From Candidatus Woesearchaeota archaeon (lineage in GTDB: Archaea > Nanobdellota > Nanobdellia > Woesearchaeales > JAGVYU01): a stretch of 58,848 nt of DNA. Numbering within the stretch: position 1 is the first letter of the stretch; the number at the start of each line of letters is the position of its first letter. Shown here piece by piece: positions 3,949 through 22,841 of the stretch. Under the pieces are notes generated by a model. That model was not told the origin of the DNA, made no database searches, and was given only the letters and a program-made list of their open reading frames with translations. The translations under genes and the position numbers were made by a program. The stretch lies in assembly GCA_043810355.1 (NCBI GenBank), contig JBDROB010000047.1:1-58848 (forward strand). Direction: 5' to 3'.

Positions 3949-3967
3949 AGATATACTAAATCATATA

Positions 3968-4207
3968 TTAAAATTTCTGTGATTTGAGATATTTTGAAAT
4001 CAATTCAACTTTTTTTTTATTAATCATTTCATAGAATTTTCTTGTATAATTTAATGGTAATATAGGGATATGTAATCTTTTCCATTCAATCTTTTCAGTC
4101 TTGTCAAACATATCTAATCTTCTATCTTCTTCAGGTGTTATTTGTCTTGTCATTTTAGTTTTCCTCTTGAGTAGTTTATTTAACCACTTCTTAATGACAA
4201 TAAACAT
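3968..4207 (-). CDS. hypothetical small basic protein
   Basis: ORF track only. Confidence 0.35.
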   Translation of the reverse strand: MFIVIKKWLNKLLKRKTKMTRQITPEEDRRLDMFDKTEKIEWKRLHIPILPLNYTRKFYEMINKKKVELISKYLKSQKF

Positions 4208-5663: not shown

Positions 5664-7198
5664 TTTTATCCTCCTGTAAGTTTATATTATTGGTAAGATT
5701 ATCTTATTTATAAGCTTTTCGGTTTGTTTTCGTTCGTCTGCCCCCAAATTCGTTTAGAAAATTTTTGCTTAGTAGTAGGGGTGGTGGGCGGGGAGAGTGG
5801 TGGGAGGTAAAACCTTGAGCGATTAGCGAAAGGCTATCTGTTGCATCAGCAACTCACCTGCACCCCCTTTAAATTAAAAGTTTGATTGTGTATAATCCTT
5901 GTTAAACTCTCCGAAGGATTGATTTTTAGTGCAACGATGCCGAAGGCAAAAAATCAAAGTAAAATTTCCGTTTCCAATAAATATCTGCGAAGCAGACTAA
6001 ATGTCCGAAGGACAGAGGCGAGAACCCCCACCTTGTGCTTCGCACAGAATTACTCTCTTGACAAATTGAAAATAAATCCTTTTTCTCCATCACTTACAAC
6101 TCTAAGCCTTTCTCCAGTTTCAATAGGGTATCTATGTTCGTGTTCCCTTCCCCCATAAAATGGCTGACTCAACGAATCTTTTGCATTAAGATACAAGATT
6201 CCTTTCTTTCTTGAAACTTCCATGTCGTGATGTTCTCCTAAATCTGTATAAGCTACAACAGCCCTTTTATTAGGTGTCCAATTATCAAGATGTGTGCAGT
6301 AAAATTGAAGATATGGCGTTACAAGAACATATCCTTCAGGATGACTTTTATCAAATTCTTCCAGACCATCTGCATCAACGCCATCTACCCCATAATAATG
6401 AGTAATTGAAAATGCTTCGCCTGTAAAATCACCAGTTCCATTTAAGTCATGTGTTGATGCAATTAACCCTTTATCTTGTAATTCAGGCATCTGAAACTTT
6501 TCAGAATCAGATAATCGGGTTAATTTTCTTGCCTGAAGAAGATTATACTGCCAATCTCCAGAATTACCGTAAGTTGCAAATTCCATTATTATTGGATGCT
6601 TTAACTCTCTTTCAGCAAAAAGAGCAATACTTGCTAAATTTTCAACTTCTTCATTTGACCATCTTGAATAATTTCTGGACATAACAACGGGACTTGATGT
6701 ATCAGGGAATACAGTTCCATCTTCAGCATATTCTCTGAGAAATGCTTCAATATATCTTTCACTATCATAAGCAGATTCTCTTATTATTTTTACAATATCT
6801 CTTGGTGCTGGAAATTTAGAATAAACAACTCCCGTATGCTCTTTTTTATCAACCATTGCCTGAACAATAACAGGAATTCTTTCATCAAGTACAGCACCAA
6901 CTTCACCAGCATATTTATTTGCCTTTTCAGTTTTTGCACTCTTTCTCACTTGATGAATTGTTCTGACTAATTTCTCTCTTGGAACATCAAGGTATGTTTC
7001 AAAAATTCCATCAAAAGAGTGTTCTCCATTATCTTCTAAAACTGATGAAGACCTAACCGCATATCTCTCAGAACCCAAAGAATCTGCGACTCCAATTATA
7101 TCTTGATAACTTCCTGCTAAGTTTAGTGAAGATGGAACTACAAAGAAATTAGGAACTATAACTTTCCCGCGATAAACGACTTCTTCGTTTAAATTCTC

Positions 7199-7782
7199 TA
7201 GCTAGAAATCCCCACCACTTGTGGTAGGGGATGAATAGCGTAATGCTTATAGAATACTGATTCTAGACATTACGGATTGGTAGAATGATGAGCCTCACAA
7301 AGGAGGTGAGGCCCAATGAGATACTCAGACCACAAATACAAACATGGTATCGGTTGGACGATGTGCCATATACAATGGGTCACAAAGTATCGATATAAGG
7401 TATTTAGTGACTTGAAGCTAAAAAACCTTTTGGAAATTCTGCTTATGGAGTCTAGCAGAAGACACAATTTTAACCTGTTGGAGATGGAGGTTCAGCCTGA
7501 TCATGTGCACGCTTTAGTGGCATTAAGGCCAAGTATGTCTCCATCTTTTGCTTTACAGGCAATGAAGGGCTACACTAGCAGATTGCTTTTCCTTATGGAG
7601 GAGGAAACTCTTTCCAGATGGTATTTTGATAATGGAAAAGAAAGAAGCCTATGGGGAGATGGTAAATTCATTGGGTCTGTCGGACATATAACTCTAGAAA
7701 AAGCAAAAGAGTACTTAGAGAAACAAGAGGCTTATCATGCCAAAGAATCCCCACCCTTTAGGGTTGGGGAGCATTAATTTTT
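7199..7782 (+). mobile_element. IS200-type insertion sequence (tnpA only); ends approximate
   Basis: Subterminal hairpins CCCCACCACTTGTGGTAGGGG (7210-7230) and CCCCACCCTTTAGGGTTGGGG (7749-7769), each preceded by ATCCCCACC. Splits a host reading frame. Confidence 0.8.
7316..7777 (+). CDS. tnpA: IS200/IS605-family Y1 (HUH) transposase TnpA
   Basis: HIQWVTKYRYKVF and QPDHVHALV (HUH) motifs, about 150 aa. Strong AGGAGGTGA box upstream. Confidence 0.9.
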   Translation: MRYSDHKYKHGIGWTMCHIQWVTKYRYKVFSDLKLKNLLEILLMESSRRHNFNLLEMEVQPDHVHALVALRPSMSPSFALQAMKGYTSRLLFLMEEETLSRWYFDNGKERSLWGDGKFIGSVGHITLEKAKEYLEKQEAYHAKESPPFRVGEH

Positions 7783-8009
7783 CTTCAAGAGATTTTAATG
7801 TTAAGATACCTCTTGCTTTTCCACCAACTAATTCAATTGGTGCTTCTCTTTCTGTATCTAAAACTAATTTGCTCATAATAATATTGAAAAATTAAACATT
7901 TTATAAATGTTCCTACTTTGGAGTTAAAAGTGGATGGTAGGGGGTTCTCGCCTCTTTTGTTTCTTTTTCTAAAAGAAAGGAAACGGAAATTTTATTGAGC
8001 ATAAGCCCT

Positions 8010-8705
8010 GTTAAGTGACCCGAACGGAATGAAATGAAGTGAGAGCGCAGCGTGGTCGACCGAAGGGAGAAGTTGAATTTCTGGACTCATTTTTCTAACT
8101 TTTTTATCGCTTCTTCGTACCACTGCCGAGCAATTTGTTTTGCTTTTTCAGAAGTAATTCTATTAAACATCCAATCAAACTTTTCTTTGACTTTTTCTTT
8201 TCCTACTTCAGAAACATGTTTGGTTAAAAATGTGGGAACATTATTTTCAAAAAAGCTGATGCTGTCTGCGTCTTTTAGTAAATTTTGGTCGTCATTTCCG
8301 CCCTCTTCATGTTTTGAGATTAGCATTTTGACTCTATCTATTAATTTCTGCTCGGCGCCCTCTTTTTTCAAAAAATCTGCCATGATTTCTGCGCCTCTTT
8401 CTTCATGAGGACGAAAGAATTCAGGATCAGCATAGCTGTGCGAATGTTTTTTGTCTTTGACATCTTGTTTTCTGAAAGCTCTTTCAATGTCATGAGCAAT
8501 AGCAGAAATTAATAGTGCTTCATCAGCATCAGCTTTTAACTGTTTAATCCAATAAACTGTTCTTTCAAAATGTTTGATTTGAGATGTTTTGCCAAGTTTT
8601 GTAAATGAATCTATTACAAATTGCTCGGCTTTTTTGTATAAATTTTCAGTCATATTATTAGAAGAAGCGATAAAGTATATAAAAGTTGTCCAGAAATTCA
8701 ATTTC
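8010..8705. other. module 2 of the inverted-repeat-bracketed gene array
   Basis: GTTAAGT box at 8010-8016. GC box GCGCAGCGTGGTCGAC at 8045-8060. Arms 8069-8086 GAAGTTGAATTTCTGGAC / 8688-8705 GTCCAGAAATTCAATTTC (18 bp, one G.T). Cargo is the HD-domain gene (minus strand). Confidence 0.8.
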
Positions 8706-8707
8706 AC
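8087..8707 (-). CDS. HD-domain phosphohydrolase-like protein
   Basis: ISAIAHDIERAF (HD) and further His/Asp. ATG at 8653 (MTENLYKK) is a more likely start, because the first 18 codons lie in the repeat arm. Confidence 0.7.
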   Translation of the reverse strand: MKLNFWTTFIYFIASSNNMTENLYKKAEQFVIDSFTKLGKTSQIKHFERTVYWIKQLKADADEALLISAIAHDIERAFRKQDVKDKKHSHSYADPEFFRPHEERGAEIMADFLKKEGAEQKLIDRVKMLISKHEEGGNDDQNLLKDADSISFFENNVPTFLTKHVSEVGKEKVKEKFDWMFNRITSEKAKQIARQWYEEAIKKLEK

Positions 8708-8716
8708 TTAAGTGCT

Positions 8717-9724
8717 GTTAAATGCCCCGACGACCGAAGGGAGGAGAATGCAATGTGGTCGACCGACTGAAAGGAGGGAGAAGTTGAAAAAATGGCGTAT
8801 CAGGGGCGAAGCCCAATCCACTAAAAAATTCAAGGGTCGGCTCAATATTATTTCTAATTTAGAAGTAGTAACATTATCAAAAGATTTATAAGTATATGTT
8901 TAATTATTAATGAAATATGAGTGAAGATAATCAGATTATTTTGTATGAAGGAAGTCCATTAGAAAGAATTGCATCTTCTGATATAGTTTTAAGAACTGAT
9001 AAACCATTAATGGAACAGAAAAGGCTATTTTTGGCAAGTGATGTTGTTGTGGGAGAATATGGTGTAACTGGTTTTGTAGTAGTTGATAATAAACCTGAAA
9101 AAAGGTGGATAAGTTACACTGAAGGAGATAAAACTGGTGTAAGCTGGGATCCAGAGTACCACTCTCTTGAATTTACTATGTATGGACTGGATGAACCATT
9201 AAGGAAGGCACATTTTGCTAATACAGATGAAGGTTTTAAAATGATTAGGTATTTTATTTTACCTTCAAATGTAAGTCAATTCTTTAGAACTGATAAATTC
9301 TTGGGATATCCCATGATTGATAAGTGTTGTAGAGAAGGTACGCTCCCAGAAGAATTTGATGAAGTTGAAGTAAATCCAGTATATGCATTCCATGGAGAAG
9401 AAAGAGAAATTATAGATAGAATAATCGAAAGGATTTCTCCAAATCTACAACAAATTGGTGAATCCAGATTTTCTTGGGAAGATTTTGGACATCAAGTATA
9501 TTTTTCATTTCATCCTTGGCAAACATATAAACCAGTTCTTGAAGCTGGAGAAGAATCAGTTGTTAGAGCTGTGAGAAATTTTGATCAATTTTTATCAAGA
9601 TTTGATGAAAGAAAAAAGCTTCAAAGAAGGGATTTAGAAATCCAAGGAGCACAAGAGTACAAAGGAGTTCTTCCACCATCTGAATAATTGAGTCGACCCT
9701 TTCTATATTTAGCCATTTTTTCAA
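8717..9724. other. module 3 of the inverted-repeat-bracketed gene array
   Basis: GTTAAAT box at 8717-8723. GC box TGCAATGTGGTCGACC at 8749-8764. Outer arms 8784-8796 TTGAAAAAATGGC / 9712-9724 GCCATTTTTTCAA (13/13). Inner arms 8832-8846 AAGGGTCGGCTCAAT / 9687-9701 ATTGAGTCGACCCTT. Cargo is ORF 8917..9687 (plus strand). Confidence 0.8.
8917..9687 (+). CDS. hypothetical protein (module 3 cargo)
   Basis: ORF track, balanced composition, no motif recognised. Confidence 0.55.
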   Translation: MSEDNQIILYEGSPLERIASSDIVLRTDKPLMEQKRLFLASDVVVGEYGVTGFVVVDNKPEKRWISYTEGDKTGVSWDPEYHSLEFTMYGLDEPLRKAHFANTDEGFKMIRYFILPSNVSQFFRTDKFLGYPMIDKCCREGTLPEEFDEVEVNPVYAFHGEEREIIDRIIERISPNLQQIGESRFSWEDFGHQVYFSFHPWQTYKPVLEAGEESVVRAVRNFDQFLSRFDERKKLQRRDLEIQGAQEYKGVLPPSE

Positions 9725-9810
9725 TTGCATTTAATTATGTTATATTCCCTCTTTAGAGGCTGAGCTCAAAGCGAAGAGTTTTTACGTAGTAAAAATTGAA
9801 TATAATCGCT

Positions 9811-10841
9811 GTTAAATACCCCGAGCCGAACGAGCGAAGCATAGTGAGGTGAGAGTGCAACGTGGTCGAGTACCGCAGTTCACAAAGTGAACGAGGAACG
9901 GAGAAGTAAAATTCTTACTTTATCAATCCTGCGAAGCAGACTATATTTAGGGGGTTTCCGTTTATCAAGGGCGTAAGCCAATTTAAGTGAATGGGTTAAG
10001 GGGAAAATCTTTTCTGAGTTAGATTTGAGTAAAGTTTATATTACTAATTATATTCCCAAAAATAATGACTAACAATGTAAATGAAGCTGCATCAAGGATG
10101 GAGCAATTGATAAACTCATTTGAGATTGTTCCAATAAAGCCTTTAGCAGGTAAGGCAATAAAAGTTCCTTCTGATGATCCATGTATATTAGGTAAAGGTG
10201 ATTCTTCTGTGATATTCCGGTTAGGCGAATTTACTGACGGGGATTATTTATGTGGCAAACTTTATGGTGCCAGGTCTCCAAGATATTCCTCTGGCATTTG
10301 GGAAATGGGGTTTTTATATATCTCAGGTTATATTATTTGTGGTTATGATAAGGGCTTAGATAATAATATTGATGTTTTAAGTAGGGTCGGTTTACAAGTG
10401 CCCCCTCACCATCAATTTAAGGCTGAAACCCATGGTGGAAAATTTACCCCCCATTATATAATCGTAGAAGATTTTACTCAAGGAGGCAGATATAATGTTG
10501 TTGATGCTGTTGATTTTGATTTCAATTCAATTCCAAATGGTGTTTCATTAGAAAAGGCATATCGGAAGACATTGTCAAGAACTTTAAGACGTTTGAGGTC
10601 AAAAAAGTATGTATTGCATTGTCATGGCCATGTTAGTGAAGCAGAGGGAGGGATTGACAATGCAATTGAGCATTTGTTTTTTGTTCAGCATAGGCAAAAT
10701 GGAGAAGGAAGATTAATTGTAGGGGATCTTGATCATATTGAAGCAAGGTATGTTCCATTTAGTGAAAGATTGCCAAAATGGATTCAGAATTTTCCCATTA
10801 TCTCTAATTTAGGAAACCCCCGTTCTAAGTAAGAATTTTAT
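9811..10841. other. module 4 of the inverted-repeat-bracketed gene array
   Basis: GTTAAAT box at 9811-9817. GC box GTGCAACGTGGTCGAG at 9855-9870. Outer arms 9906-9918 GTAAAATTCTTAC / 10829-10841 GTAAGAATTTTAT. Inner arms 9950-9959 GGGGGTTTCC / 10812-10821 GGAAACCCCC. Cargo is ORF 10065..10832 (plus strand). Confidence 0.8.
10065..10832 (+). CDS. hypothetical protein (module 4 cargo)
   Basis: ORF track, no confident motif. Confidence 0.55.
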   Translation: MTNNVNEAASRMEQLINSFEIVPIKPLAGKAIKVPSDDPCILGKGDSSVIFRLGEFTDGDYLCGKLYGARSPRYSSGIWEMGFLYISGYIICGYDKGLDNNIDVLSRVGLQVPPHHQFKAETHGGKFTPHYIIVEDFTQGGRYNVVDAVDFDFNSIPNGVSLEKAYRKTLSRTLRRLRSKKYVLHCHGHVSEAEGGIDNAIEHLFFVQHRQNGEGRLIVGDLDHIEARYVPFSERLPKWIQNFPIISNLGNPRSK

Positions 10842-10855
10842 TGTATTTAATCCTT

Positions 10856-11943
10856 GTTAAGTTCTTTTCCCATACGAAGTGTGGGAAAACTGCGTCCGCA
10901 GAGTTGAGAATTTGTCTTTTTTCAAGCACGGAGTGCCATCAAAATAATTCATCCAGGGGCTTTGGTCGTTATTACATTATACACTAAATAGTGGTAACAA
11001 ATAGAAACATTTATAAAGAAAATGTATTCAATCTTTATTATGTTGGAGCAAATTACGTATCAGAATAATCAAGAATTACAGGATGCACAATTAACTACAA
11101 TAGTTAATGTTGCAAGTGAAATTTACCAATCAAATGGAAATAAACCTATTAGAATTCTTGATTTAGCAACAGGTCCAAATGGATTTAATCCAGTTATTGT
11201 AAGAAATTTAATTGATAGAGGCATCGATTATGAATTGGTTTTATCAGACATTTCTCCAACACATTTCAGAATTGGATATGAAAATCTTGAACAAGAATTA
11301 TCTCCTGAAGAACTTCAAAAAGTAAAATGCGTACTAGCAGATTCTAGAGATTTTAAAAGAAATCTTACTGAAGTTCCATTATGGGGTGAAGGTAGAAAAC
11401 CGCTTGAAGAAGTTCTTGAAGATCCAAGATACCAATTTTTACAAACAGGTTATCAAGATGGTCAAAGAACAGTAGATTTTACTGATGGTGCTTTTGATTT
11501 GGTTATTGGAAATATTCCTTATGGAAGTATAAATACAGGAGATTATTCGGATGCAATAGATGAGTCTGCAAGAGTTTTGAAACCTAGTGGATATCATATT
11601 GTTGATGAAATGCATGTTGAAAATGTGCAGAGTTATGGATTGCGAGCTTGGTGTACCTTAAAAGAAATGTTTGGAAAACCATTAAGAGAAGCTTATCCAA
11701 CTGCAAGAAGAAGCTTATCGGCAATTTCTAGAGCAAGAGCAAAAGATCTTCAAGAAGTCTCATCTAAATTGGATTCAGTATTAACACCTGTTGCTGTTTA
11801 TTCAACAACTTACGTATATGATACAGAAGAACGAATTCCTGAACAAACTCTCCAAAAAGGAGATTTAGTAAAAAGAGCTGTATTTGTACATCAGAAAGTT
11901 GATTAAGCCCAAAGCCCCCTTCTACTAAAAGACAAATTCTCAA
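10856..11943. other. module 5 of the inverted-repeat-bracketed gene array
   Basis: GTTAAGT box at 10856-10862. Outer arms 10904-10920 TTGAGAATTTGTCTTTT / 11927-11943 AAAAGACAAATTCTCAA (17/17). Inner arms 10954-10965 CAGGGGCTTTGG / 11909-11920 CCAAAGCCCCCT. Cargo is the methyltransferase gene (plus strand). Confidence 0.8.
11022..11906 (+). CDS. class I SAM-dependent methyltransferase with NPPY-like motif (possible N6-amino methyltransferase)
   Basis: ILDLATGPNG (motif I) and DLVIGNIPYG (motif IV-like). Confidence 0.65.
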   Translation: MYSIFIMLEQITYQNNQELQDAQLTTIVNVASEIYQSNGNKPIRILDLATGPNGFNPVIVRNLIDRGIDYELVLSDISPTHFRIGYENLEQELSPEELQKVKCVLADSRDFKRNLTEVPLWGEGRKPLEEVLEDPRYQFLQTGYQDGQRTVDFTDGAFDLVIGNIPYGSINTGDYSDAIDESARVLKPSGYHIVDEMHVENVQSYGLRAWCTLKEMFGKPLREAYPTARRSLSAISRARAKDLQEVSSKLDSVLTPVAVYSTTYVYDTEERIPEQTLQKGDLVKRAVFVHQKVD

Positions 11944-11947
11944 TTGA

Positions 11948-12018
11948 ACTTAACAACATTTAAACGAATCCATTGGAATTCGGGGACTACAGGGGCTGTA
12001 GGGTTAATGTTGTTAGGA
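11948..12018. repeat. closed attC-like hairpin with core-like ends
   Basis: ACTTAACAACATT (11948-11960) pairs with AATGTTGTTAGG (12006-12017). The ends resemble RYYYAAC / GTTRRRY. Inner hairpins are CGAATCCA/TGGAATTCG and CTACAG/CTGTAG. Confidence 0.65.
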
Positions 12019-12063
12019 TCAAATCTGAAAAAGTGGTGTAACTTATGAGTGAACTTGGATAAC

Positions 12064-12118
12064 AAAAACCGCACTAATCCCCTACTTGAAGGTAGGGGTA
12101 TTTTATCATGCGGTTTTT
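12064..12118. repeat. closed hairpin element
   Basis: AAAAACCGCA / TGCGGTTTTT (10 bp) enclosing CCCCTAC/GTAGGGG. Confidence 0.7.
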
Positions 12119-12122
12119 GGGA

Positions 12123-12192
12123 TTGAAAATCTCGCACTAAAGTGCATGGTATTCCTTATCCCAGACAAAATCTCGCTGTGCGAGATTTTCAA
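12123..12192. repeat. closed hairpin element with TTGAAAA...TTTTCAA termini
   Basis: TTGAAAATCTCGCAC (12123-12137) / GTGCGAGATTTTCAA (12178-12192), 15/15. Inner GCAC-TAAA-GTGC. Confidence 0.75.
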
Positions 12193-12367
12193 TAATTAAA
12201 TAATGTAAAAAAGGGCAAATGATTTCCGGATAAGTTGGTAATCTTGTGGTATGTATTTAAATGAAATGAAAGATTTTCAATGAAATCAAAGAGGCTTCGA
12301 TTCTGCTGAAAAAATGCATGATTTTTTACCATAATACATTAAAAGGTCTTCAGGCTATAAAATATTT

Positions 12368-13246
12368 ATGGATATCTTAGAGGTAGTGAAAAAGGAGATG
12401 CTTCGTCGGAGATTGAGCAGAAGGACGATCTCTACATATCTTTTCTATATCAGGAAGTTCTTGCTTTTCTGTCCAAAACCTCCAAAAGAGTTCTCTAAAA
12501 AGGATATAAAAGATTTCCTTGAGCAGAAAGGCTATCTTGAAAAGTCTGGGAGCACAACTAATGTTGCCCTCATGTCCCTTCGTTTCATGATGGAAGAATG
12601 CCTTAGGAAAAGCATGAGGTTGAATATTAGGTATTCAAAGACTCCTAAATCTCTGACTGCTTGCTTGACAAAGGAAGAGGTTAGAATGCTGATTGATTCT
12701 TTCAAGAATGAAAAGCATAAACTGCTAATTTCACTCATGTATGGAGCTGGATTAAGAGTGAGTGAGGCTGTCAAGCTGAAGAAGGAGGATATTGATCTTT
12801 GTTCAGGATATGGATGGGTTAGAAGAGGAAAGGGCAACAAGGATAGGCCCTTTATTATTCCTATAAGTTTGAAACAAGGTATAATTAAAAGAATGGAGAT
12901 TGAAGGAACCTATATCTTTCCAGGAAGGAGTCAACATCATTTATCTGTTAGATCAGTGCAACAGATACTGAAAAGGGCAGGAAGAAAAGTGTTGAAAAAG
13001 CATGTCAACCCTCACATGCTAAGGCATTCATTTGCAACGCACTTGATTGAAGATGGAACAGATTTGATGGCTATTCAGTCACTTCTTGGCCATAATGAAG
13101 CTAGGACAACAATAGAATATCTTCATGTTGTTAAGCCAAAGATGCTGAATGTTAAGAGTCCGCTTGATTGTTTGGAGGATAAAAATGATGTCTCAAAACC
13201 ATGCAAAAATAGAAAGATTTATACAACAAAAATCTTTGATTTTTGA
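12368..13246 (+). CDS. tyrosine site-specific recombinase (Xer/IntI-like)
   Basis: N-terminal SAM-like domain (LSRRTISTYLFYIRKFLLF). Catalytic signatures AGLRVSEA, HMLRHSFATHL, LLGH, TTIEYLHV. C-terminal VKSPLD. Confidence 0.9.
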   Translation: MDILEVVKKEMLRRRLSRRTISTYLFYIRKFLLFCPKPPKEFSKKDIKDFLEQKGYLEKSGSTTNVALMSLRFMMEECLRKSMRLNIRYSKTPKSLTACLTKEEVRMLIDSFKNEKHKLLISLMYGAGLRVSEAVKLKKEDIDLCSGYGWVRRGKGNKDRPFIIPISLKQGIIKRMEIEGTYIFPGRSQHHLSVRSVQQILKRAGRKVLKKHVNPHMLRHSFATHLIEDGTDLMAIQSLLGHNEARTTIEYLHVVKPKMLNVKSPLDCLEDKNDVSKPCKNRKIYTTKIFDF

Positions 13247-13250
13247 GCAT

Positions 13251-13273
13251 AACATTCCTAAAATAGGAATGTT
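13251..13273 (+). terminator. stem-loop after the recombinase gene
   Basis: AACATTCCTA-AAA-TAGGAATGTT, 10-bp perfect stem 5 nt after the stop codon. Confidence 0.5.
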
Positions 13274-13312
13274 TATATATAATTAGATTATACAAACTCA
13301 GGGTGATAAAAA

Positions 13313-13528
13313 ATGGATGTATTTGAAGCTATTCCAAAGCATTGGGGAAATTCCATAGGAGTGACTATCCCAAGGGAAATTGTCAAAAAGAATGGGATTG
13401 TTCCCAAGAAGAAGGTAATGTTATTAGTCTTAAGAGAAGATAATACCCTGGAAAAGATGTTTGGTAGCCTTCCGAGAAAGAAATCAACACAAAAAATAAT
13501 GGATGAGATTGATGAAGGATATGACTGA
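13313..13528 (+). CDS. vapB: AbrB/MazE-type antitoxin
   Basis: WGNSIGVTIPREIVKKNGI motif. Overlaps the PIN gene (ATGACTGA). Confidence 0.8.
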   Translation: MDVFEAIPKHWGNSIGVTIPREIVKKNGIVPKKKVMLLVLREDNTLEKMFGSLPRKKSTQKIMDEIDEGYD

Positions 13529-13889
13529 AGTATTTTTTGCAGACACTTATGCATTGTTTGAGATAATTTTTAAGAATGATGATTATAAAAGATTTCTTAA
13601 ATTAATCTTTGTCACTACTAAATCTAATTTAGTTGAATTCTACTATCATTTATTAAAGGATTATGGAAAAAATGTTGCAGATGCACATCTTAAGGCTTTT
13701 TCTAGTATAATAATTCCAGTTACATATGAAAGCATTCAAGAAGGTATGAAGTTTAAACTTAAATTTAAGAAAGAAAAGCTGAGCTATGTAGATTGCATAG
13801 GATATGCTCTAGCTTTGGAATATGGCATCAAATTTCTCACTGGAGACCAGAAGTTTGAGTTTAAGGATAATGTGGAATTTGTTAAATGA
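13521..13889 (+). CDS. vapC: PIN-domain toxin (VapC-like)
   Basis: MTEVFFADTYALFEI N-terminus, C-terminal LTGDQKF. ATG 13521 overlaps the antitoxin stop. Confidence 0.75.
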   Translation: MTEVFFADTYALFEIIFKNDDYKRFLKLIFVTTKSNLVEFYYHLLKDYGKNVADAHLKAFSSIIIPVTYESIQEGMKFKLKFKKEKLSYVDCIGYALALEYGIKFLTGDQKFEFKDNVEFVK

Positions 13890-13923
13890 ATCAAGCATCT
13901 CCTGCTTTTATTCTGATATGCTG

Positions 13924-13993
13924 TCAAAGTCGGCAGGGACCGCCAGTCAATATGCTGGTGGCATGTTCGCTTCGCTCACCCTGCCGACTTTGA
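13924..13993. repeat. closed GC-rich hairpin element
   Basis: TCAAAGTCGGCAGGG (13924-13938) / CCCTGCCGACTTTGA (13979-13993), 15/15. The loop contains a GCTTCGC mini-hairpin. Confidence 0.75.
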
Positions 13994-14094
13994 GCATGCT
14001 CAGAAATATACCGCCTTCCAAAAATGGATTGTGGACTATTGCCCACTGGTCATGCAGGCCAGGAGTATATTTCTGACATATCAATACCTGTTCA

Positions 14095-14126
14095 ACCACT
14101 GGACATTCTGCTGTGAGATATATAAA
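14095..14126 (+). promoter_or_regulatory. copy 3 (32 nt) of the TATA-containing repeat, upstream of PolB
   Basis: ACCACTGGACATTCTGCTGTGAGATATATAAA is identical to the other two copies. ATG of polB lies 40 nt downstream. Confidence 0.8.
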
Positions 14127-14166
14127 CCATTTCTCATTCTCTTCAGGAAAATGAAAAAATGAAAAA

Positions 14167-16386
14167 ATGAAAGCAGTCTTCATAGATTGCTACAGAAAAA
14201 AGAATAAGATCATTCTGTGGCTGAAAAAGGGAAAAGAAAACATAATGTTAGAGGATAGTTTTACCCCAAAAATCTATGTGAGAGGCGATGATCTTAAGGG
14301 TATAAGGGAAACTTTGCAAAAAAATAGTAAAAATAGTATTAAATCAAGATTTGTAAAAAAAAACACTTTCTTTAAACAGAATATTTGGGTTCTGGAAATC
14401 TCTCTGCCTTTGTCATCTTTTTATCAAAAAAGAAAACTTGTTGAAAAACTTCTAGACTATACTGCAGAAATCTATAATGCTGACATAAAGCCAGAAGAAC
14501 ACTATATGTTTGAGAAAGACATATTTCCTTTAGCCAAGGTTGAAATAGAAAACAAGAATCATTGGCTTGTCTCAATCAGGTCTTTGGACAATCCTTATGA
14601 TATCCATTACAATATCCCTGACTTCTCTATCGCAAAGATAAAAGTCAAGACAAAGCATAATCTTTTCCGAAGGTTTGAGACATCACTGCAGGCAATCTCA
14701 ATAAACAATAACATATTTGAAGGTGATGAAAAGATAATATTATCCAAATTCAAGAAAGAGTTTGAAAAACTCGACCCTGATATTGTTGCAGCAGAGCATG
14801 GCAATCTTCTGCTTCCATTTCTTAAGGGCAGATTCAAATCCCATAATCTCCTTTTTAGCTTTAACAGGTTTGAAAATGATGATTTCACGCATAAGCAAGG
14901 TGAGCATTTTCATTCATACAACAAGGTAGTATTCAGGACTCATTCCATCTTCCTGAAAGGAAGGCTTCATTTTGATTCAAGGAGCTTTTTCACAGATGAT
15001 ATCACTGCACAAGGTGTTTTTGACGGAGCAAGGATGTGCAGGCAGACTATCCAGAGGACTCAGATGCGTTCTGTAGGAGCAGCTATCACAAATCTGTTGA
15101 TTTATGCCTCATACAAAAAAGACTTCCTGATACCATACAAGACAGGGGTGTATGAAAGATTCAAGACTTTGAAGCAATTATACATAGCTGACCATGGCTC
15201 AGTCATATTTGAGCCAAGAGTTGGCTTCCATAATCATGTTGCTGAATTTGATTTTGTCTCATTATACCCTAACATAATGAACAAGTTCAATCTCAGCCCT
15301 GAGACATTGTTCTGCAGATGCTGTAAAGATAATAAAGTCCCAGAATTGCATTACAATTACTGCACTAGAAATAGAGGTATTGTATCAGATGTTGCAAAAA
15401 ACATTATTGAGAGAAGGATTGAACTAAAAAAGATAGGGACTCCTGAGGCAATGAAAAGGGCTTGTTTCAGCAAATGGTTATTGGTCACTATGTTTGGCTA
15501 CCAAGCCTTCAGGAACAAGAAGATTGGGATAATTGAGACTCATGAGAGCATCCAGGCATATGCAAGACAGGCAATAATGAGATCTGTGAGATTAGCAGAA
15601 CAGCAGGATTGGGAAGTTATCCATGGAATAATTGACTCAATCTATGTAAAAAAGAAAGGTTTCAATGAAAAAGACACTGCAAGATTAGGAAGAGAGATAT
15701 TCCTCAACACAAATCTTGAGATCAATCATGAGGCTGATTACAGATGGATTGTGTTCCTGCCGTCTATAAATGACAGCAGGATCCCTGTCCCTACTCATTT
15801 TTATGGCGTCACTGTGGATAATGAGATCAAGATGAGGGGCATTGAGGCAAGAAGAAAAGACACTCCTGGAATAATTGTTGAGATGCAGGTTGAGATGATA
15901 AAGGAATTGAGCAAGGCAAAGGATGAGCTCCAATTCAGACAACTATTCCCAAATATTTTCTCAATACTTAAACGATATGTTGAAATGCTCCCTTTTGCCC
16001 ATGCTGATAATCTGGCTGTCTACAGATCTTTAAGAAAGGCTGATTATGCTAATAATATCCCTCAGAAGATTGTTGTAAATCAATTGAAAGAAAAAGGGTA
16101 CAGTATTGATCCTGGTCACACTATTGCTTACATCATAGCAGACATCAATAACAGGAATCCTAAGAAACGCTACTGCTCTTTAGAGGATTACAAAGGAAAG
16201 TTTGATCTTAGCAAATACACTGACATGCTTGTGAGGGCAACCTTCTCTTTGCTTCAGCCTTTTGATGTGACTGTGCCTGATTTATATGGGGTTTTAGCAA
16301 AGTCAAGGCAGCTTGTTATGTCAGATTTTGCTATGTCTGATTTTGCAGAGAAAGTAAAGATATCTGAAGTGGCTCTTAGAAACTAA
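14167..16386 (+). CDS. polB: divergent family-B DNA polymerase without recognisable 3'-5' exonuclease catalytic residues
   Basis: Motif A DFVSLYPNIM, motif B-like KWLLVTMFGY, motif C HGIIDSIYV (single Asp), MRGIEARRKD. At the Exo I/II positions the sequence is SIAKIKV and EHGNLLLPFL instead of DxE / NxxxFD. Confidence 0.85.
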   Translation: MKAVFIDCYRKKNKIILWLKKGKENIMLEDSFTPKIYVRGDDLKGIRETLQKNSKNSIKSRFVKKNTFFKQNIWVLEISLPLSSFYQKRKLVEKLLDYTAEIYNADIKPEEHYMFEKDIFPLAKVEIENKNHWLVSIRSLDNPYDIHYNIPDFSIAKIKVKTKHNLFRRFETSLQAISINNNIFEGDEKIILSKFKKEFEKLDPDIVAAEHGNLLLPFLKGRFKSHNLLFSFNRFENDDFTHKQGEHFHSYNKVVFRTHSIFLKGRLHFDSRSFFTDDITAQGVFDGARMCRQTIQRTQMRSVGAAITNLLIYASYKKDFLIPYKTGVYERFKTLKQLYIADHGSVIFEPRVGFHNHVAEFDFVSLYPNIMNKFNLSPETLFCRCCKDNKVPELHYNYCTRNRGIVSDVAKNIIERRIELKKIGTPEAMKRACFSKWLLVTMFGYQAFRNKKIGIIETHESIQAYARQAIMRSVRLAEQQDWEVIHGIIDSIYVKKKGFNEKDTARLGREIFLNTNLEINHEADYRWIVFLPSINDSRIPVPTHFYGVTVDNEIKMRGIEARRKDTPGIIVEMQVEMIKELSKAKDELQFRQLFPNIFSILKRYVEMLPFAHADNLAVYRSLRKADYANNIPQKIVVNQLKEKGYSIDPGHTIAYIIADINNRNPKKRYCSLEDYKGKFDLSKYTDMLVRATFSLLQPFDVTVPDLYGVLAKSRQLVMSDFAMSDFAEKVKISEVALRN

Positions 16387-17063
16387 TAAAACTCAGGTTT
16401 AATCTCTTCAAGGGCTTTTGCTCCCCTGTGAATTCTGGTCTTTACAGTATTTAATGGAACATCCAACATATCGCTGATATCCTTATAAGATACATGATAG
16501 ATTCTGTTCATGATTGTAGGAGTTAATAATCTTTCATCAATGCCTTCAACAATGTCATGTTTCCCATTAAATATTGCTTTATGGACCAATTTACGTGCTG
16601 CTGGATCATGGGCATATTGTTCTGGAGTCACATCAGGAAGGACTCTGGTTTCATAGGATGGTGGGCTGAAATTTAGGCCTATCTCATTATCTTTTGGATA
16701 TCTTTCTGGGTCTTCAAAAATCTTTCTCTGATTGCCAGATTTTTTATAATGCTTAAACAGAATATGTTCTGCAACAGTAAAAAGCCAGGTTTTTGCAAAA
16801 CCTTTGTCAGTGTATCCGCCTGTAGAATAGCTTTTCCAAGCTTGTAAAAAAACCTCTTGTTTTAGGTCTTCAGCTAAGTCAGGTTTTCCTGTCATAGAGA
16901 ATAAGTAATTACGTATGCCACGTTCGTATTGATCATAGAATTCTTTTGTAAATCTTTCCTGTAGCATTTCAATTGACAAGGCTGTGAGCGGAAAAGGCCT
17001 GATATTGTCAGGTCTAAGAGAATCAACACTACCTTTAACAACCTCTGCTAAATTACTTCCCAT
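16383..17063 (-). CDS. sigma-70 family (ECF-type) sigma-factor-like protein
   Basis: Region 2-like AEDLKQEVFLQAWKSY...WLFTVAEHILFKHYKK. Region 4-like YKDISDMLDVPLNTVKTRIHRGAKALEE. Confidence 0.7.
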   Translation of the reverse strand: MGSNLAEVVKGSVDSLRPDNIRPFPLTALSIEMLQERFTKEFYDQYERGIRNYLFSMTGKPDLAEDLKQEVFLQAWKSYSTGGYTDKGFAKTWLFTVAEHILFKHYKKSGNQRKIFEDPERYPKDNEIGLNFSPPSYETRVLPDVTPEQYAHDPAARKLVHKAIFNGKHDIVEGIDERLLTPTIMNRIYHVSYKDISDMLDVPLNTVKTRIHRGAKALEEIKPEFY

Positions 17064-17237
17064 ATAAAAAAGAAAATATGAATTACCTTATATAATTTGC
17101 TGTTCAGATATAAACCATATTCACCATATTCATAAAATTAATATTAAACTCATTAAGAAACTTAAGAAAAAGTTGTTATCTGTCTTAATTATTATAAGAC
17201 AATATTATTTATATACTACTGAAGCAGGCTAGTCAGC

Positions 17238-18383
17238 ATGAACTCAAATCCAAACGGAAGACTGGCTGTCTATGCCAATAGCATGGGCCAATTCTATGGT
17301 AAAAAGGTATTTGCAGAATTATCTGAATTAGTCAGGGAAGATACTGAAAAAAAGAGGACTGAGCATGACTTATTATTGCAGAGATGGCCAGATCATTTAA
17401 GGCAGGCAATGGAGCATGTCATGGAGCATGAATATGAGACACCTCCTGAATTTGTCTCTCCAAAATTGGATGAATTTCCAGATACAAATCAAAGACCAGT
17501 TATAGAGGATCTTGTCAGGGGACAGGATGCATATCTTGTCCAATGGCTTATAACTCCTCCTGGAGCTTCGGGTGAAGAAAGATACAGATGTTCTGCTGAC
17601 AGGCTTGCTTTTGAATTCTTCAAGACAATTGATGCATTGCGCCATGCAGGTATCAAGAGGCTTTCTCTAGTCACACCATATGCATATGATTCAAGAAAAG
17701 ACATCAGAGAGGGCAGGGATGCAATCGGTTCTCTTACATTCTGCAAGGCTTTGGATGGTATTATTAGGGGTGAGAGGATGCAGGCATTCTGCCTTGACCT
17801 TCATGCCCAGCAGATTGAGGGATTTTATCAGGCATATAATATTAATATGGATTCTGTCCCAATGTTTGATGTATTTGTTGACCATATTGAATCATATTAT
17901 CCAGCTCTCCCTAAGAACGCAGTTGTCCTTGCTCCTGATCTTGGCTCGACAAAGAGGGCAAGAAACCTTTCTGAAAGGCTTGGGGCTCCTGTTGTGATCA
18001 TTGACAAGAGAAGAGTAAGCCCTACAAAGATTATTATTGAGGCATTGGCTGCAGGAGGGGTTGATCCCAAAGGAAAAAAGATATTGCTTTTTGACGATGT
18101 CTTGGCATCAGGAGGCACTGCGATTGAAGGGACTGAATATCTGCAGAGAGAAAGAGGTGCAGGTGAAGCTTATTGGTTTATGACCCATCCTTCTATGACT
18201 AATATGCATAAATTAGATAGTGCTTATGAAAGAGGAGTTTTCAAGAGGATTTTCACAGCTGATACAGTTCCATTGCCTGACAGGGAATATCTTGAGCAGG
18301 TGAACACTTCTAGAAAGATAGCACAGCTTATCTGGAATATCCACACAGATAAGAGTGTTGGTCCTTATCTGGATACTAAATAG
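17238..18383 (+). CDS. ribose-phosphate pyrophosphokinase (PRPP synthetase)-like protein with about 100-aa N-terminal extension
   Basis: LVTPYAYDSRKD, LDLHAQQIEGFY, KILLFDDVLASGGTAIEG (PRPP loop). Confidence 0.65.
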   Translation: MNSNPNGRLAVYANSMGQFYGKKVFAELSELVREDTEKKRTEHDLLLQRWPDHLRQAMEHVMEHEYETPPEFVSPKLDEFPDTNQRPVIEDLVRGQDAYLVQWLITPPGASGEERYRCSADRLAFEFFKTIDALRHAGIKRLSLVTPYAYDSRKDIREGRDAIGSLTFCKALDGIIRGERMQAFCLDLHAQQIEGFYQAYNINMDSVPMFDVFVDHIESYYPALPKNAVVLAPDLGSTKRARNLSERLGAPVVIIDKRRVSPTKIIIEALAAGGVDPKGKKILLFDDVLASGGTAIEGTEYLQRERGAGEAYWFMTHPSMTNMHKLDSAYERGVFKRIFTADTVPLPDREYLEQVNTSRKIAQLIWNIHTDKSVGPYLDTK

Positions 18384-18430
18384 ATACTAAATAACAAAAA
18401 TTTAAATAATTCAGGGATAAATATTCCTAT

Positions 18431-19087
18431 ATGGCAGGGAAAATGGCAGGGAAAAAAGATGAAAAAAAGAGATTTTCAATGTGGGTGTACTTAGGGATTA
18501 TTGGTGCCTTAATTGTGCTCACTTTCTCCATAATTGTGATCATAAACTTATTTCAGACCGGTTTTCCTCAAAAAGGCATTCAGCCATATATTATCAAGAT
18601 ACCTTTTTTAGATGATGGTTCAGGATCTGATCATTCAGGCCTGCCTGATGATGCAACTGATAAGGATAATGGCAATAAGAAGAAAAACAATTCTGATGAT
18701 TTATCTGATTCAGATCAAGGAAGTGATGCTGATGAAAATAATGATGAGAGTGAATCTGAAACACAAGACCCATCCATAGATCAATTGACAGAACCAGAGA
18801 CATTATTGGCTGTAAATCCAAGTGAGGAATATGATGGTAACAACCTGTTATACATTGTATATCTCTCTCAAACCCAGGTTGAAATGATAAAGGGAGAAAA
18901 AGTGTATTTCACTATGACTTTTTCAGGTGTTTCTGGATCAGAGTTCTATTTCAACCATATCAGCCTTGCAGTAGCTAGCCCATTAGTCACAAGATATGTT
19001 GAAGTCGGCCCGAATTTCATCGAGCTTCCTTCAAAGGTTGCTGAACAGGCGACTTTTCTTAAAGTGGAATTGGTTCCAGTCACATAA
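18431..19087 (+). CDS. membrane-anchored protein with acidic low-complexity linker
   Basis: N-terminal TM segment WVYLGIIGALIVLTFSIIVIINLF, then a D/S/N/E-rich stretch. Confidence 0.5.
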   Translation: MAGKMAGKKDEKKRFSMWVYLGIIGALIVLTFSIIVIINLFQTGFPQKGIQPYIIKIPFLDDGSGSDHSGLPDDATDKDNGNKKKNNSDDLSDSDQGSDADENNDESESETQDPSIDQLTEPETLLAVNPSEEYDGNNLLYIVYLSQTQVEMIKGEKVYFTMTFSGVSGSEFYFNHISLAVASPLVTRYVEVGPNFIELPSKVAEQATFLKVELVPVT

Positions 19088-19189
19088 TTTTCTTCAATCC
19101 AAACAATGATCTATAAAAATGATAATTAATAATCCAAATCATGATCTAAAATCTAATATTTTTTTAAATATTTGAATAAAATTAAAGAA

Positions 19190-19666
19190 TTATCTTGGTT
19201 TTAGATAAGAGATCACATAACCGACTGCAGCTCCAGCAATTGCTGTAAATCCAAGCCTGTTTACCCATATATGCACATCAGGGTCATTCACCATCTGATC
19301 ATTCAATAAGATTGCTGCAAGCCCTACAGCTGCTACAGTTGCAGCTTTTCCAAATGCTCTTCTAACATAAGGATCACTTGGAACAATATTTCTTGTTACA
19401 TCTGTAACATTCCAGTCTGCTGACCTTCTTTGCCTTCTTTGCCTTCTTTCATAATCTGATTCATGATTAGATATATATTCAGGTAAGAATGAATTGACTA
19501 ATGTTCTAGAAATTATGGGATTTGCCATCTCAGTCTCAAAATTCATGATTGCATCATATTCTGTAACCCCAGGCCACCTGTTATTGTCATGATGATATCT
19601 GAATAGAGCTTCCCTTACTTGAGAATCTTGATCTACTATTCGCTTTAATTCCCCTATATTTGCCAT
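19190..19666 (-). CDS. hypothetical protein with C-terminal Gly/Ala-rich TM segments
   Basis: ORF 19190..19705. ATG 19666 (MANIGELKR) is the likely start. Confidence 0.45.
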   Translation of the reverse strand: MANIGELKRIVDQDSQVREALFRYHHDNNRWPGVTEYDAIMNFETEMANPIISRTLVNSFLPEYISNHESDYERRQRRQRRSADWNVTDVTRNIVPSDPYVRRAFGKAATVAAVGLAAILLNDQMVNDPDVHIWVNRLGFTAIAGAAVGYVISYLKPR

Positions 19667-19820
19667 AGGTAGAAGAATGATTTTCAATTTAAAAATGTTA
19701 TGCATTCTAATCTAATAATTAATTTAAATTTAACCTATCTTCTCCATTATAGCAATTTTTATAAATACATCATATCAAAGAAATCATAGATTAAAAAAGA
19801 GGAATACAAAAGGTGGTGAG

Positions 19821-20186
19821 ATGGCAAAGAAGAGGGTTTTGATTGTTGAGGATGAGCATAATATTGCTAAGGCAGAGGAACTTATACTAGGGGATGACTT
19901 TGAGGTATTTATTGCCAATGATGGAGAGTCAGGCTTGAAGATGGTCAAGGATCTAAAGCCCCATCTGATCATACTTGATCTTATGCTTCCTAACAGGGGT
20001 GGTTATGACATCTGTTTTAATGTAAGGCAAGACCCAGTATTAAGGGATACAAAGATACTTATGGTGACAGCAAAGAACCAGGATATTGACAAGGACAAGG
20101 GAGTTTTGGTTGGTGCTGATGATTATATGACAAAGCCATTTGAAGCTGCTGAACTGCTGAAAAGATCTGTTGATCTCCTCAAATAA
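19821..20186 (+). CDS. response regulator, receiver domain only (CheY-like)
   Basis: VLIVEDE...HLIILDLMLP...KILMVTAK...DYMTKPF. Confidence 0.9.
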   Translation: MAKKRVLIVEDEHNIAKAEELILGDDFEVFIANDGESGLKMVKDLKPHLIILDLMLPNRGGYDICFNVRQDPVLRDTKILMVTAKNQDIDKDKGVLVGADDYMTKPFEAAELLKRSVDLLK

Positions 20187-20190
20187 TAAA

Positions 20191-20209
20191 AATCTCGCAA
20201 TGTGAGATT
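20191..20209 (+). terminator. hairpin after the response regulator gene, related to the 12123-12192 element
   Basis: AATCTCGCA-A-TGTGAGATT followed by CTCAATAA. Compare GTGCGAGATTTTCAATAA at 12178. Confidence 0.45.
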
Positions 20210-20267
20210 CTCAATAAAATCCTTTTTTTCTGTATACTTTCTGTATACTGCATCTAGCTTGTGAAAA

Positions 20268-21764
20268 ATGATTGGAGAATTTATTGCTACATACTTGAAT
20301 CCTGACATCTTCAGTAGGTTCTTCCTTTTTCTAAATACTCAGCAAGGCATCCTTTTTGAGAGATCTATAGAATTAGTTATATTCACAATTCTGGCTTATA
20401 TGGTGATTTCTGAATACAGGAGATCAAAAAGAAAAGAATTGAGATATTTTATTCTTGCTTTTAGTGCATTATTCCTTTTAAGGCTTGCATCAGTTGTATT
20501 AAATCTTAACATTGTTTTTGGCCAGATTGCAAAAGCTTCATTTGATCCAGTTCTTCCTGTCTCAACACAGTTTTTGGAATTGTTCACCCTGGTCTTGCTG
20601 ATAAATGCTTTCTTATATCCGATAATCTCAAAAAAGATCAAGAACATGAATTTTCTTATAATCTATGAGATCTTGATGCTTATCCTCATCTCTATAATGG
20701 TTCAGATGTTTTGGCTTTACCATCGTTATATCCTTCCATTGGTTGATTTCAGGCTGACCCAAGGCAATCTGATCTTTATCTGGCTGAAGATAGCAATAGT
20801 CTGCTTTGCCCTCTACTTGATCATAAGACATAAGAATATAAAATTCAATTATAGGAAACATGTTTTTATCGCATTCTCAGTATATCTGCTGACTCCTTTG
20901 ATCCAGCTTTTCAATACTGTATTTTTTGAGTACGATGCGCAAAGGCTGATCTTGCTTGAGATACCATTCCCGCTTATATCAATCCTGTTATTCACTCAGA
21001 TCATCTATCTAAAGCTTGTCGACAAGGCATATCTGAGGGAAAAGTTGGAAGAGTCTCAAAAAAGGTACAAGGCAGAGAGAGAGCTCAGCAAATTAAAGGA
21101 TGAGTTTGTCTCTGTCGTTAGCCATGAGCTTAGGACTCCGTTGACTTCGATGAAACTGTACTGTGACCTTCTTCATTCTGAGAAATTTGGCAAGATCACA
21201 ACTAAGCAGCATGATGCAATCCATATTATTGAATCAGAATGCGACAGGCTGAATGTCTTGATAAATGACATCCTTAACCTCTCAAAATTAGAGTCAGGAA
21301 AAGACAAGATTAATTTAGGAAATTATTGCCTGGATGATCTGAAAAAGATGATAGTAGACAGGACTGCAAGGGAGAAAGGGATTGATGTAGACTATGATAT
21401 TCCAAAAGGGTTTGAGGCAAGAGTTGATGTGGACAAGTTCAAGCAGATGTATATCAATATATTCATCAATGCTGTCAAATTCACAGAAAAAGGGGGCAGG
21501 ATATCAGTCATTGTCAAGGTGATGAAGGAAAGGTGGAAATTGATTCTGAAAGATTCCGGCATTGGGATGCCCAAGAATGAGATTCCTAGACTCTTTGATA
21601 AATTCTATCAGATTGACTCGCATATGACAAGGAAATTTGGGGGAACCGGCCTTGGTCTGGCGATTGTCAAGGCAATTGTTGACCTTCATAATGGAAATAT
21701 TGAAGTAAATTCTGAGATTGGAAAAGGATCGACTTTTATTGTCACTTTCCCAAAGAATCCTTAA
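20268..21764 (+). CDS. membrane sensor histidine kinase
   Basis: Multiple N-terminal TM helices. H-box VSHELRTPLTS. NAVKFT, DSGIGM, GGTGLGLAIV ATPase boxes. Confidence 0.9.
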   Translation: MIGEFIATYLNPDIFSRFFLFLNTQQGILFERSIELVIFTILAYMVISEYRRSKRKELRYFILAFSALFLLRLASVVLNLNIVFGQIAKASFDPVLPVSTQFLELFTLVLLINAFLYPIISKKIKNMNFLIIYEILMLILISIMVQMFWLYHRYILPLVDFRLTQGNLIFIWLKIAIVCFALYLIIRHKNIKFNYRKHVFIAFSVYLLTPLIQLFNTVFFEYDAQRLILLEIPFPLISILLFTQIIYLKLVDKAYLREKLEESQKRYKAERELSKLKDEFVSVVSHELRTPLTSMKLYCDLLHSEKFGKITTKQHDAIHIIESECDRLNVLINDILNLSKLESGKDKINLGNYCLDDLKKMIVDRTAREKGIDVDYDIPKGFEARVDVDKFKQMYINIFINAVKFTEKGGRISVIVKVMKERWKLILKDSGIGMPKNEIPRLFDKFYQIDSHMTRKFGGTGLGLAIVKAIVDLHNGNIEVNSEIGKGSTFIVTFPKNP

Positions 21765-22818: not shown

Positions 22819-22841
22819 TCAACATTTTTAATAACATTTTT

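Follow-up and report, generated by a model that had tools for sequence, protein, structure and literature searches.

Integrons are the textbook machine of gene capture and are defined by the integrase IntI, whose extra domain reads folded attC sites. In archaea, the portion of Ghaly et al., 2022 (PMC9668308) available to us reports 539 attC sites and six IntI genes from 75 genomes, in which the arrays mostly lack IntI and the archaeal IntIs carry the extra domain. For the housekeeping system of dimer resolution, the accessible sections of Cortez et al., 2010 (PMC2958812) indicate that dif does not lie beside xerA in Thermococcales. Small recombinase-less units, the Acinetobacter dif modules or IMEX elements, use the host XerC/D according to the parts of two reports at hand (PMC6449649, PMC13141974). 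The available part of Smyshlyaev et al., 2021 (PMC8138268) describes 'integron-like' and 'Cand' subgroups of recombinases, with Xer-related enzymes of candidate phyla in a subgroup of their own. The terms DPANN and Woesearchaeota did not occur in the searchable text of a 2021 review of archaeal tyrosine recombinases (PMC8371274), and our literature searches found no published description of an association between an insertion-less recombinase and a cassette array. Here we describe such an association for a tyrosine recombinase gene in a 58,848-nucleotide (nt) stretch of Candidatus Woesearchaeota DNA, referred to as the window, which is contig C47 of a host genome of 1.46 Mb in 83 contigs (87.6% complete).

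We consider it fairly probable that this gene encodes the dedicated site-specific recombinase of an adjacent cassette array, and that the two together form an analogue of an integron without the IntI domain. The features on which this builds, each directly observed, are an intact gene that lacks the insertion, a clade of its own, a second recombinase of the XerA type in the same genome, the polarity and conservation of the sites, assembly breaks on the 5´ side, and a synteny break. The gene itself is as follows.

12368..13246, plus strand: tyrosine recombinase gene with an ATG start, encoding an Xer-sized protein of 292 amino acids (aa) with a SAM_4 N-terminal domain and a catalytic domain.

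This is an intact Xer-type tyrosine recombinase gene with the full set of catalytic residues: R130, K155, H216, R219, H242 and Y251 were invariant in all 41 aligned family members, and Pfam models matched both the catalytic domain (PF00589, 130 bits) and SAM_4 (PF13495, 49.7 bits). An earlier sequence-only reading of the window had credited the protein with all tyrosine-recombinase signatures, and the residues and the PF00589 score bear this out. The enzyme is predicted to be active as a recombinase, and we propose that it would act on the sites of the array. Its closest proteins are labelled Candidatus Woesearchaeota, Nanoarchaeota or DPANN by the source databases.

The additional domain that marks membership of the IntI family, located between patches II and III, is absent from the window protein. 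Among the recombinases of the fetched loci, the distance from GKGxKxR to HxLRH, taken with a motif pattern, is 55 aa in the window protein and 51–66 aa in those Xer-sized rows that yielded both motifs (not all rows gave a value), compared to 99–102 aa (mostly 100) in 43 of the 45 insertion-bearing IntI rows, IntI1 of plasmid R46 included; for the remaining two (L097 and L110) the pattern gave no usable value. Plasmid tblastn for IntI references returned IS91-linked and Clostridium 'XerA-like' genes and no IntI; the references used were IntI1 from R46 and diverse IntI sequences from an alignment scan. In structural comparisons, Vibrio IntI4 (PDB 2a3v, 126.7 bits) matched in two pieces, query residues 7–168 to 9–173 and 189–267 to 239–318, with 65 IntI4 residues facing 20 query residues in the gap between them, and Pyrococcus XerA (4a8e, 123.8 bits) matched in a single piece. 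The 55-aa spacing and the split 2a3v match agree with the earlier description of a 292-aa, Xer-sized protein without the IntI domain.

The two ends that had been read as IntI-like, the N-terminal string LSRRTISTYLFYIRKFLLF and the C-terminal string YLHVVKPKMLNVKSPLDCL, are both present in the 292-aa open reading frame (ORF), in which KSPLD is followed by a 23-aa extension absent from most relatives. The tail does resemble that of IntI (...GVRSPLDAL in R46 IntI1), and all 41 family members match the IntI model at E < 1e-10 (best 6e-67). An SPLD tail, however, is carried by DPANN XerA-type proteins and bacterial IntI as well as by the window family, and is absent from E. coli XerC and XerD; from these alignments it is a common trait of the wider XerA/IntI group and not specific to IntI. 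The genome's own XerA, encoded on contig C29, ends in ...KVRSPFDEL and has the same SAM_4 domain. Because this XerA has both ends and also scores higher on the IntI model than the window protein (221 versus 190 bits), the ends are not markers of kinship with IntI, and of the earlier observation only the resemblance stands.

The window protein fell below the cut-offs of both the archaeal XerA model NF040815 (XerA_Arch; 194 bits, cut-off 220) and the IntI model TIGR02249 (190 bits in two stretches, cut-off 265), two of the comparisons that the sequence-only reading had called for, as well as that of NF011946 (117 bits, cut-off 435). Only two PF00589 genes were found in the genome, the window gene and the one on C29, whose product is 41% identical to the window protein and passes NF040815 with 251.8 bits. 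The XerA model was also passed by all five further basal rows (234.7–281.5 bits), as against one of six array-linked rows (222 bits; the window protein is among the six). In these counts and below, the array-linked group comprises the window clade and two sister clades, 65 of the 97 genes surveyed, and the XerA type the other 32.

In a tree of 114 rows (IQ-TREE quick search, LG+C20; all tree supports given here are SH-aLRT values from quick searches), the IntI clade had a support of 100, a 34-row clade containing the window protein 99, and a 17-row DPANN XerA-type clade containing the C29 XerA 92. A 76-row subset under LG+C20 again recovered the window family (100, 17 rows), the XerA type (90) and IntI (100), as well as two further DPANN clades (87 and 89). 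The window protein lies outside both the IntI clade and the XerA-type clade; on these trees it is a member of a well-supported Woesearchaeota/Nanoarchaeota clade, apart from IntI and from housekeeping XerA. It thus does not cluster firmly with XerA dimer-resolution enzymes, the outcome that the sequence-only reading had named as contrary to its view, and C29 encodes a separate XerA. The placement that the reading had asked for was obtained in part: the clade is secure, and the backbone among the window clade, the XerA type, IntI and the two other DPANN clades does not resolve in the 76-row tree. A nesting of IntI within the array-linked clades, given by a 150-row LG+G4 tree, was lost under LG+C20 and is not claimed. 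The 76-row tree also groups four Xer-sized bacterial recombinases without the insertion (L061, L062, the second gene of L101, and L106) with the IntI clade at a support of 92, and these may represent bacterial kin of IntI that have no insertion.

Upstream of the recombinase gene, on the same strand, lies the array.

5886..11952, plus strand: five-cassette array.
Starts 5886, 7995, 8702, 9796 and 10841, plus strand: L-box site cores, TTGnnnnTAAnCnYTGTTAAR or a variant.
5895..5976, plus strand: type-A module, in which a 9-bp helix and a GNA-loop mini-hairpin flank an invariant TTAGTGCAACG.

Each L-box is followed by a structured, hairpin-rich module of ~60–100 nt that ends in ...AAG, and private inverted arms of 16–19 nt bound four of the five cassettes. 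The cognate arms match over 18, 18, 8, 16 and 19 nt, compared to a mean of 9.0 and a maximum of 11 for non-cognate combinations (n = 20). For the type-A module, the commonest, 89.5% of cells were paired versus 70.8% after shuffling and 32–63% in slid controls, and compensatory changes on both sides were seen in 9 of 12 pairs across 19 copies (from the window, three named loci and eight further genomes), the structure having been proposed from the same sequences as were tested, which biases the pairing test toward the A/T-rich 9-bp helix. RNAalifold predicted only three pairs in the module. The hairpin loops on the plus strand are mostly GAA, GTA or GCA. Since GNA loops form unusually stable DNA mini-hairpins, they would point toward a folded DNA strand.

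The cassettes consist of single genes and encode no functions for their own replication or mobility. Their contents are a PPDK_N-like protein, an IS200-type Y1 transposase, a DUF4202/HD protein, two proteins without a Pfam match, and a methyltransferase; no cassette ORF was common to the window array and any fetched locus. The transposase, of the IS200/IS605-type Y1 (HUH) family (PF01797, 85 bits; 7316–7777, plus strand), is preceded by G/C-rich hairpins at ~7190–7310, so that one cassette holds a single-strand-DNA transposon and has sites that themselves look folded as single strands.

The attC consensus is RYYYAAC...GTTRRRY. A strict search for this pattern with paired ends found no canonical attC on either strand of the window, and is too strict for a fair test. 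Matches to CTGTTAAAT with one mismatch were not above chance (30 versus 29.9 expected); the longer L-box was specific, occurring in 6 of 101 genomes, against 1 for a reversed control. A search of positions 1–21000 against Rfam gave nothing relevant, the only match being U7 at E 0.09.

The last cassette ends in a sixth site of a different kind, 424 nt upstream of the recombinase ATG.

11942..11971, plus strand: platform-proximal core-type site, with left arm AATTGAACTTA, 8-nt spacer ACAACATT and right arm TAAACGAATCC.
11949..12044, plus strand: hairpin with the box listed next; the hairpin is CTTAACAACATT...AATGTTGTTAGG, in which 11949–11960 pairs with 12006–12017, enclosing two small palindromes.
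12022-12044, plus strand: conserved box AATCTGAAAAAGTGGTGTAACTT after the hairpin, kept in the window, L038, L041, L042, L043 and L124.

The format of this proximal site is present 182–424 nt upstream of the start codon in all seven loci of the window subclade. Across the subclade the right arm is conserved (TAnACGAAnTC) and the left arm variable, and arm complementarity is 5–7 of 11 positions, rising in L041 to 11 of 11, a perfect 11-8-11 palindrome. The proximal spacers (AC..., of the ACAACATT type) differ from the cassette spacers (of the ATCCTTGT type) and are never replaced by them. The closest comparison is with L038, whose recombinase is 86% identical by blastp and which is syntenic with window positions 11951–23609, a block that takes in the recombinase gene as well as the toxin-antitoxin pair and polymerase gene after it, and unrelated to the left of 11951. 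Because the synteny starts at 11951, the variable region begins at the edge between the left arm and the spacer of the proximal site; and because the proximal spacers differ from the cassette spacers, an inserted cassette seems to bring a left arm only. Together these suggest an exchange at one edge of the spacer, where the crossover point would lie. Other pairs that could show a synteny break (L129, L048 and L125) are too divergent for comparison. Loci L135 (G039:C21) and L136 (G072:C25) are 100% identical over 4400 nt in two bins and are either one population binned twice or a shared element.

Two further observations concern the surroundings of the proximal site. A 131-nt stretch between this site and the recombinase gene (12061–12191), absent in L038, contains an inverted repeat and the palindrome AAAATCTCGCTGTGCGAGATTTT, which recurs in variant form at 20189; the stretch may have originated as a small mobile insertion. 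The proximal site has another copy, 78% over 64 nt, on contig C72 of the same genome (~3850–3990, minus strand), followed by a copy of a promoter-like repeat; no tyrosine recombinase is encoded on C72.

From these elements we propose the following scheme. The enzyme would bind a core-type site in which a left arm RATTGnnnnTA and a right arm TAnAC... enclose a spacer of ~8 nt; this site occurs once beside the gene in the manner of attI and once per cassette. A free circular cassette would be inserted beside the gene when its site recombines with the proximal one, and recombination between two sites of the array would excise one. Exchange would be one-sided in the spacer and resolved by replication, as in integrons. 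Because it lacks the IntI insertion, the enzyme cannot read extrahelical bases as IntI does; recognition would more likely proceed through the conserved core sequence within a folded single strand formed by the private arms, the GNA-loop mini-hairpins and the covarying helix. On this basis we infer a single-strand pathway. A distinct mechanism carried out by an Xer-sized, IntI-tailed enzyme had been suggested by the sequence-only reading; the Xer size, the missing insertion and the link to an array were borne out, and the tail as a sign of IntI was not.

The likeness to the IntI/attI/attC system comprises a recombinase gene beside a proximal site, tandem and mostly single-gene cassettes with structured sites of their own, toxin-antitoxin genes nearby, array variation between close relatives, metagenome assemblies that break on the 5´ side, a SAM_4 N-terminal domain, an SPLD tail, and a junction pattern suggesting one-sided spacer exchange. 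Unlike IntI, the window enzyme has no insertion, does not reach the TIGR02249 cut-off and branches outside the IntI clade. The sites also differ, having a conserved sequence core where the strict search for R''/R' found no canonical attC, and private arms that flank the ORF and are not confined to 60–120 nt. Finally, the window array lies upstream, on the recombinase strand, whereas an integron array is divergent from the integrase gene.

Acinetobacter modules are flanked by inverted pdif sites bound by XerC and XerD. The window cassettes resemble them, as far as the available parts of the two reports describe them (PMC6449649, PMC13141974), in being small recombinase-less modules with Xer-type sites that are shuffled between replicons. 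In contrast to those modules, the core sites of the window are direct repeats on one strand with a dedicated single recombinase gene adjacent, and the cassettes add private arms and a folded module. The 'integron-like' and 'Cand' subgroups (PMC8138268) were compared by description only, and the portion of that text at hand mentions no cassette arrays.

We surveyed all 97 Xer-like genes in a 100-genome sample of the order (70 genomes with a match), taking 8 kb upstream and 3 kb downstream of each; the site searches covered 351 kb of upstream and 271 kb of downstream sequence. When the inter-cassette segments of the window were used as nhmmer queries, all 20 matches, in 15 of the 97 loci, were upstream of the recombinase and on its strand. 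The L-box core pattern gave 15 matches upstream on the plus strand, one upstream on the minus strand, one downstream on the plus strand and none downstream on the minus strand. Among the array-linked genes, 15 had 2 kb or more of upstream sequence and 10 of these had sites, compared to 2 of the 29 XerA-type genes with longer upstream sequence, in both cases more than 4 kb away. Modules upstream on the same strand were seen, for example, at L047, L048 (five sites) and L003, and modules were 80–96% identical between genomes whose recombinases are ~50% identical. The whole-array BLAST scored two candidates per genome, and its counts are lower bounds. Whether homologs always adjoin such arrays, as the sequence-only reading had wondered, received a qualified answer: enzymes of this group nearly always lie at an array's edge, and the link has fixed polarity.

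Assembly breaks showed the same asymmetry. The 5´ side was less than 2 kb from a contig end for 50 of the 65 array-linked genes and the 3´ side for 7 (two of the 65 rows, L135 and L136, being one identical contig binned twice), compared to 3 and 2, respectively, of the 32 XerA-type genes. For bacterial IntI genes, from metagenome-assembled genomes and species representatives, the numbers were 22 of 44 on the 5´ side and 13 of 44 on the 3´ side, a far weaker 5´ skew than in the array-linked clades.

These distributions bear on another account, in which the window gene is an XerA paralogue that is redundant and functionally unconnected with the array, and both the adjacency and the contig-end bias come from a variable, repeat-rich region. 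A score on the XerA model (194 bits) that is near the cut-off of 220 and an unresolving tree backbone are what such a paralogue might give. A chance neighbor would not account for the strict polarity of the sites, breaks on the 5´ side only (50 versus 7), a proximal site conserved near the gene, or the repetition of the pattern in three clades and dozens of genomes, and we regard this account as quite improbable.

A weightier alternative, which we nonetheless judge unlikely, is an Xer/dif module with a single recombinase, comparable to XerS/difSL, in which the proximal site serves dimer resolution and the cassettes are IMEX-like hitch-hikers whose traffic is a by-product. It is known that difSL adjoins xerS, and the corresponding feature, an inverted-arm core with a short spacer beside the gene, is present in all seven subclade loci. 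The dif-like site that the sequence-only reading had set against its own view is half there: the proximal core has the 11-8-11 format, perfect in L041, yet this site is the junction of a cassette array. With archaeal XerA/dif (PMC2958812, in the sections accessible) the locus shares enzyme size, the domain pair, the SPLD tail, the catalytic residues, a core with inverted arms and, in G097, a terminus-proximal position. It differs in that the enzyme belongs to a separate clade and scores below the NF040815 cut-off, a true XerA is encoded elsewhere in the genome, and, relative to the Thermococcales arrangement given in those same sections, the array-linked site lies 182–424 nt away from its gene, directly against a cassette array.

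Genome content speaks on both sides of this alternative. Among the 70 genomes with a match, 38 have the array-linked type only, 18 both types and 14 the XerA type only. Among near-complete genomes, G097 (in one contig), G028 and G098 have the array-linked type only, G016 the XerA type only, as does G085 except for a degenerate 206-aa fragment, and G025 had no match. The 1131.6-kb genome of G097 has orc1/cdc6 at 439.8 kb and skew switches at ~420–456 and ~930–1010 kb. At 1041 kb, the recombinase lies close to the second of these switches and ~36 kb away from the position opposite orc1/cdc6, where a dif site would be expected; the skew sampling covered ~35% of this one genome in 57-kb steps. In G098, on the other hand, the locus is ~108 kb (11%) from the point opposite orc1. 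Against a dimer-resolution module also stand the single-gene cassettes without replication or mobility functions, the separate XerA of the window genome, which passes the curated model, and the 18 sample genomes with both types. Because the true XerA is present, a dimer-resolution role for the array-linked enzyme is unnecessary in the window genome. In some lineages this enzyme may double as the dimer resolvase, or be only that, the positional evidence coming from G097 only.

The perfect 11-8-11 core of L041, the 38 genomes with the array-linked type only and the dif-like position in G097, with the additional role that they may indicate, count against a recombinase dedicated to the array, and several other observations do as well. 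No excised circle or empty site was seen in this computational analysis. With the queries used, no site was seen for five of the 15 array-linked genes that have 2 kb or more upstream, among them that of G080, which has a single L-box-like match. L054 has three modules that are downstream and point the other way, and some genomes, such as G078 and G098, contain modules a long way from any recombinase that was detected. The contig-end bias is indirect evidence drawn from related genomes that are not independent of one another.

Downstream of the recombinase, the window contains the following pair, ahead of a family-B polymerase gene.

13313..13889, plus strand: MazE/AbrB-like antitoxin and PIN toxin pair just downstream of the recombinase, syntenic in L038 and not conserved beside other family members.

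These neighbors raise the question of whether the recombinase is instead the integrase of an integrated plasmid or provirus that runs downstream from the proximal site through the toxin-antitoxin pair, the polymerase and a sigma-like gene, with the proximal site as one att junction. The presence of the pair and the polymerase after the gene would fit, as would a 29-nt palindromic repeat at 12167 and 20189 and the second proximal-site copy on C72, with no recombinase nearby. The synteny with L038, however, extends to 23609, past the repeat at 20189, and the copy at 12167 is inside the 131-nt stretch that L038 lacks. The downstream genes were within 3 kb downstream of none of the other 96 homologues, and the conserved partner of the gene is the upstream array. 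An integrated element of this kind is highly improbable.

Several other features of the window were noted. A 55-nt repeat with a TATA-like box occurs three times on the same strand (662–716, 2771–2825 and 14083–14137) and also in L038, the third copy being just upstream of the family-B polymerase gene. Just past the PIN toxin gene is a G+C-rich imperfect palindrome (13917–14004) with a bulged stem of ~17 bp; it is closer in appearance to a bacterial attC than are the sites of the array, and it did not match the strict attC pattern. The final 140 nt of C29, the XerA contig, reappear unchanged in reverse complement as positions 1–140 of the window and form a long imperfect palindrome; this shared end would be either a branch of the assembly graph or a repeat element. 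An ORF at 16383–17063 on the minus strand has a translation that reads like a bacterial extracytoplasmic function (ECF) sigma-70 factor with a region-4-like C-terminus, which would be odd in an archaeon.

Returning to the recombinase as the array's dedicated enzyme, we advance a broader proposal tentatively and with real doubt: the three clades of insertion-less, Xer-sized recombinases (65 of the 97 genes) could be the missing integrase of DPANN arrays, and thereby a second kind of integron that reads a conserved core within a folded single strand and exchanges on one side of the spacer. If true, this may explain why archaeal cassette arrays mostly lack IntI, and it would give IntI, XerA and the array-linked enzymes a common SPLD-tailed stem, with gain of the extra domain as the origin of IntI. 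A widespread insertion-less archaeal clade at hypervariable arrays with fixed polarity would be a second solution to gene capture. The array-linked enzyme is a testable candidate for the exchange of accessory genes in tiny symbiotic archaea, and the gene together with its proximal site would provide a simple marker for such arrays in metagenomes, where assemblies usually break.

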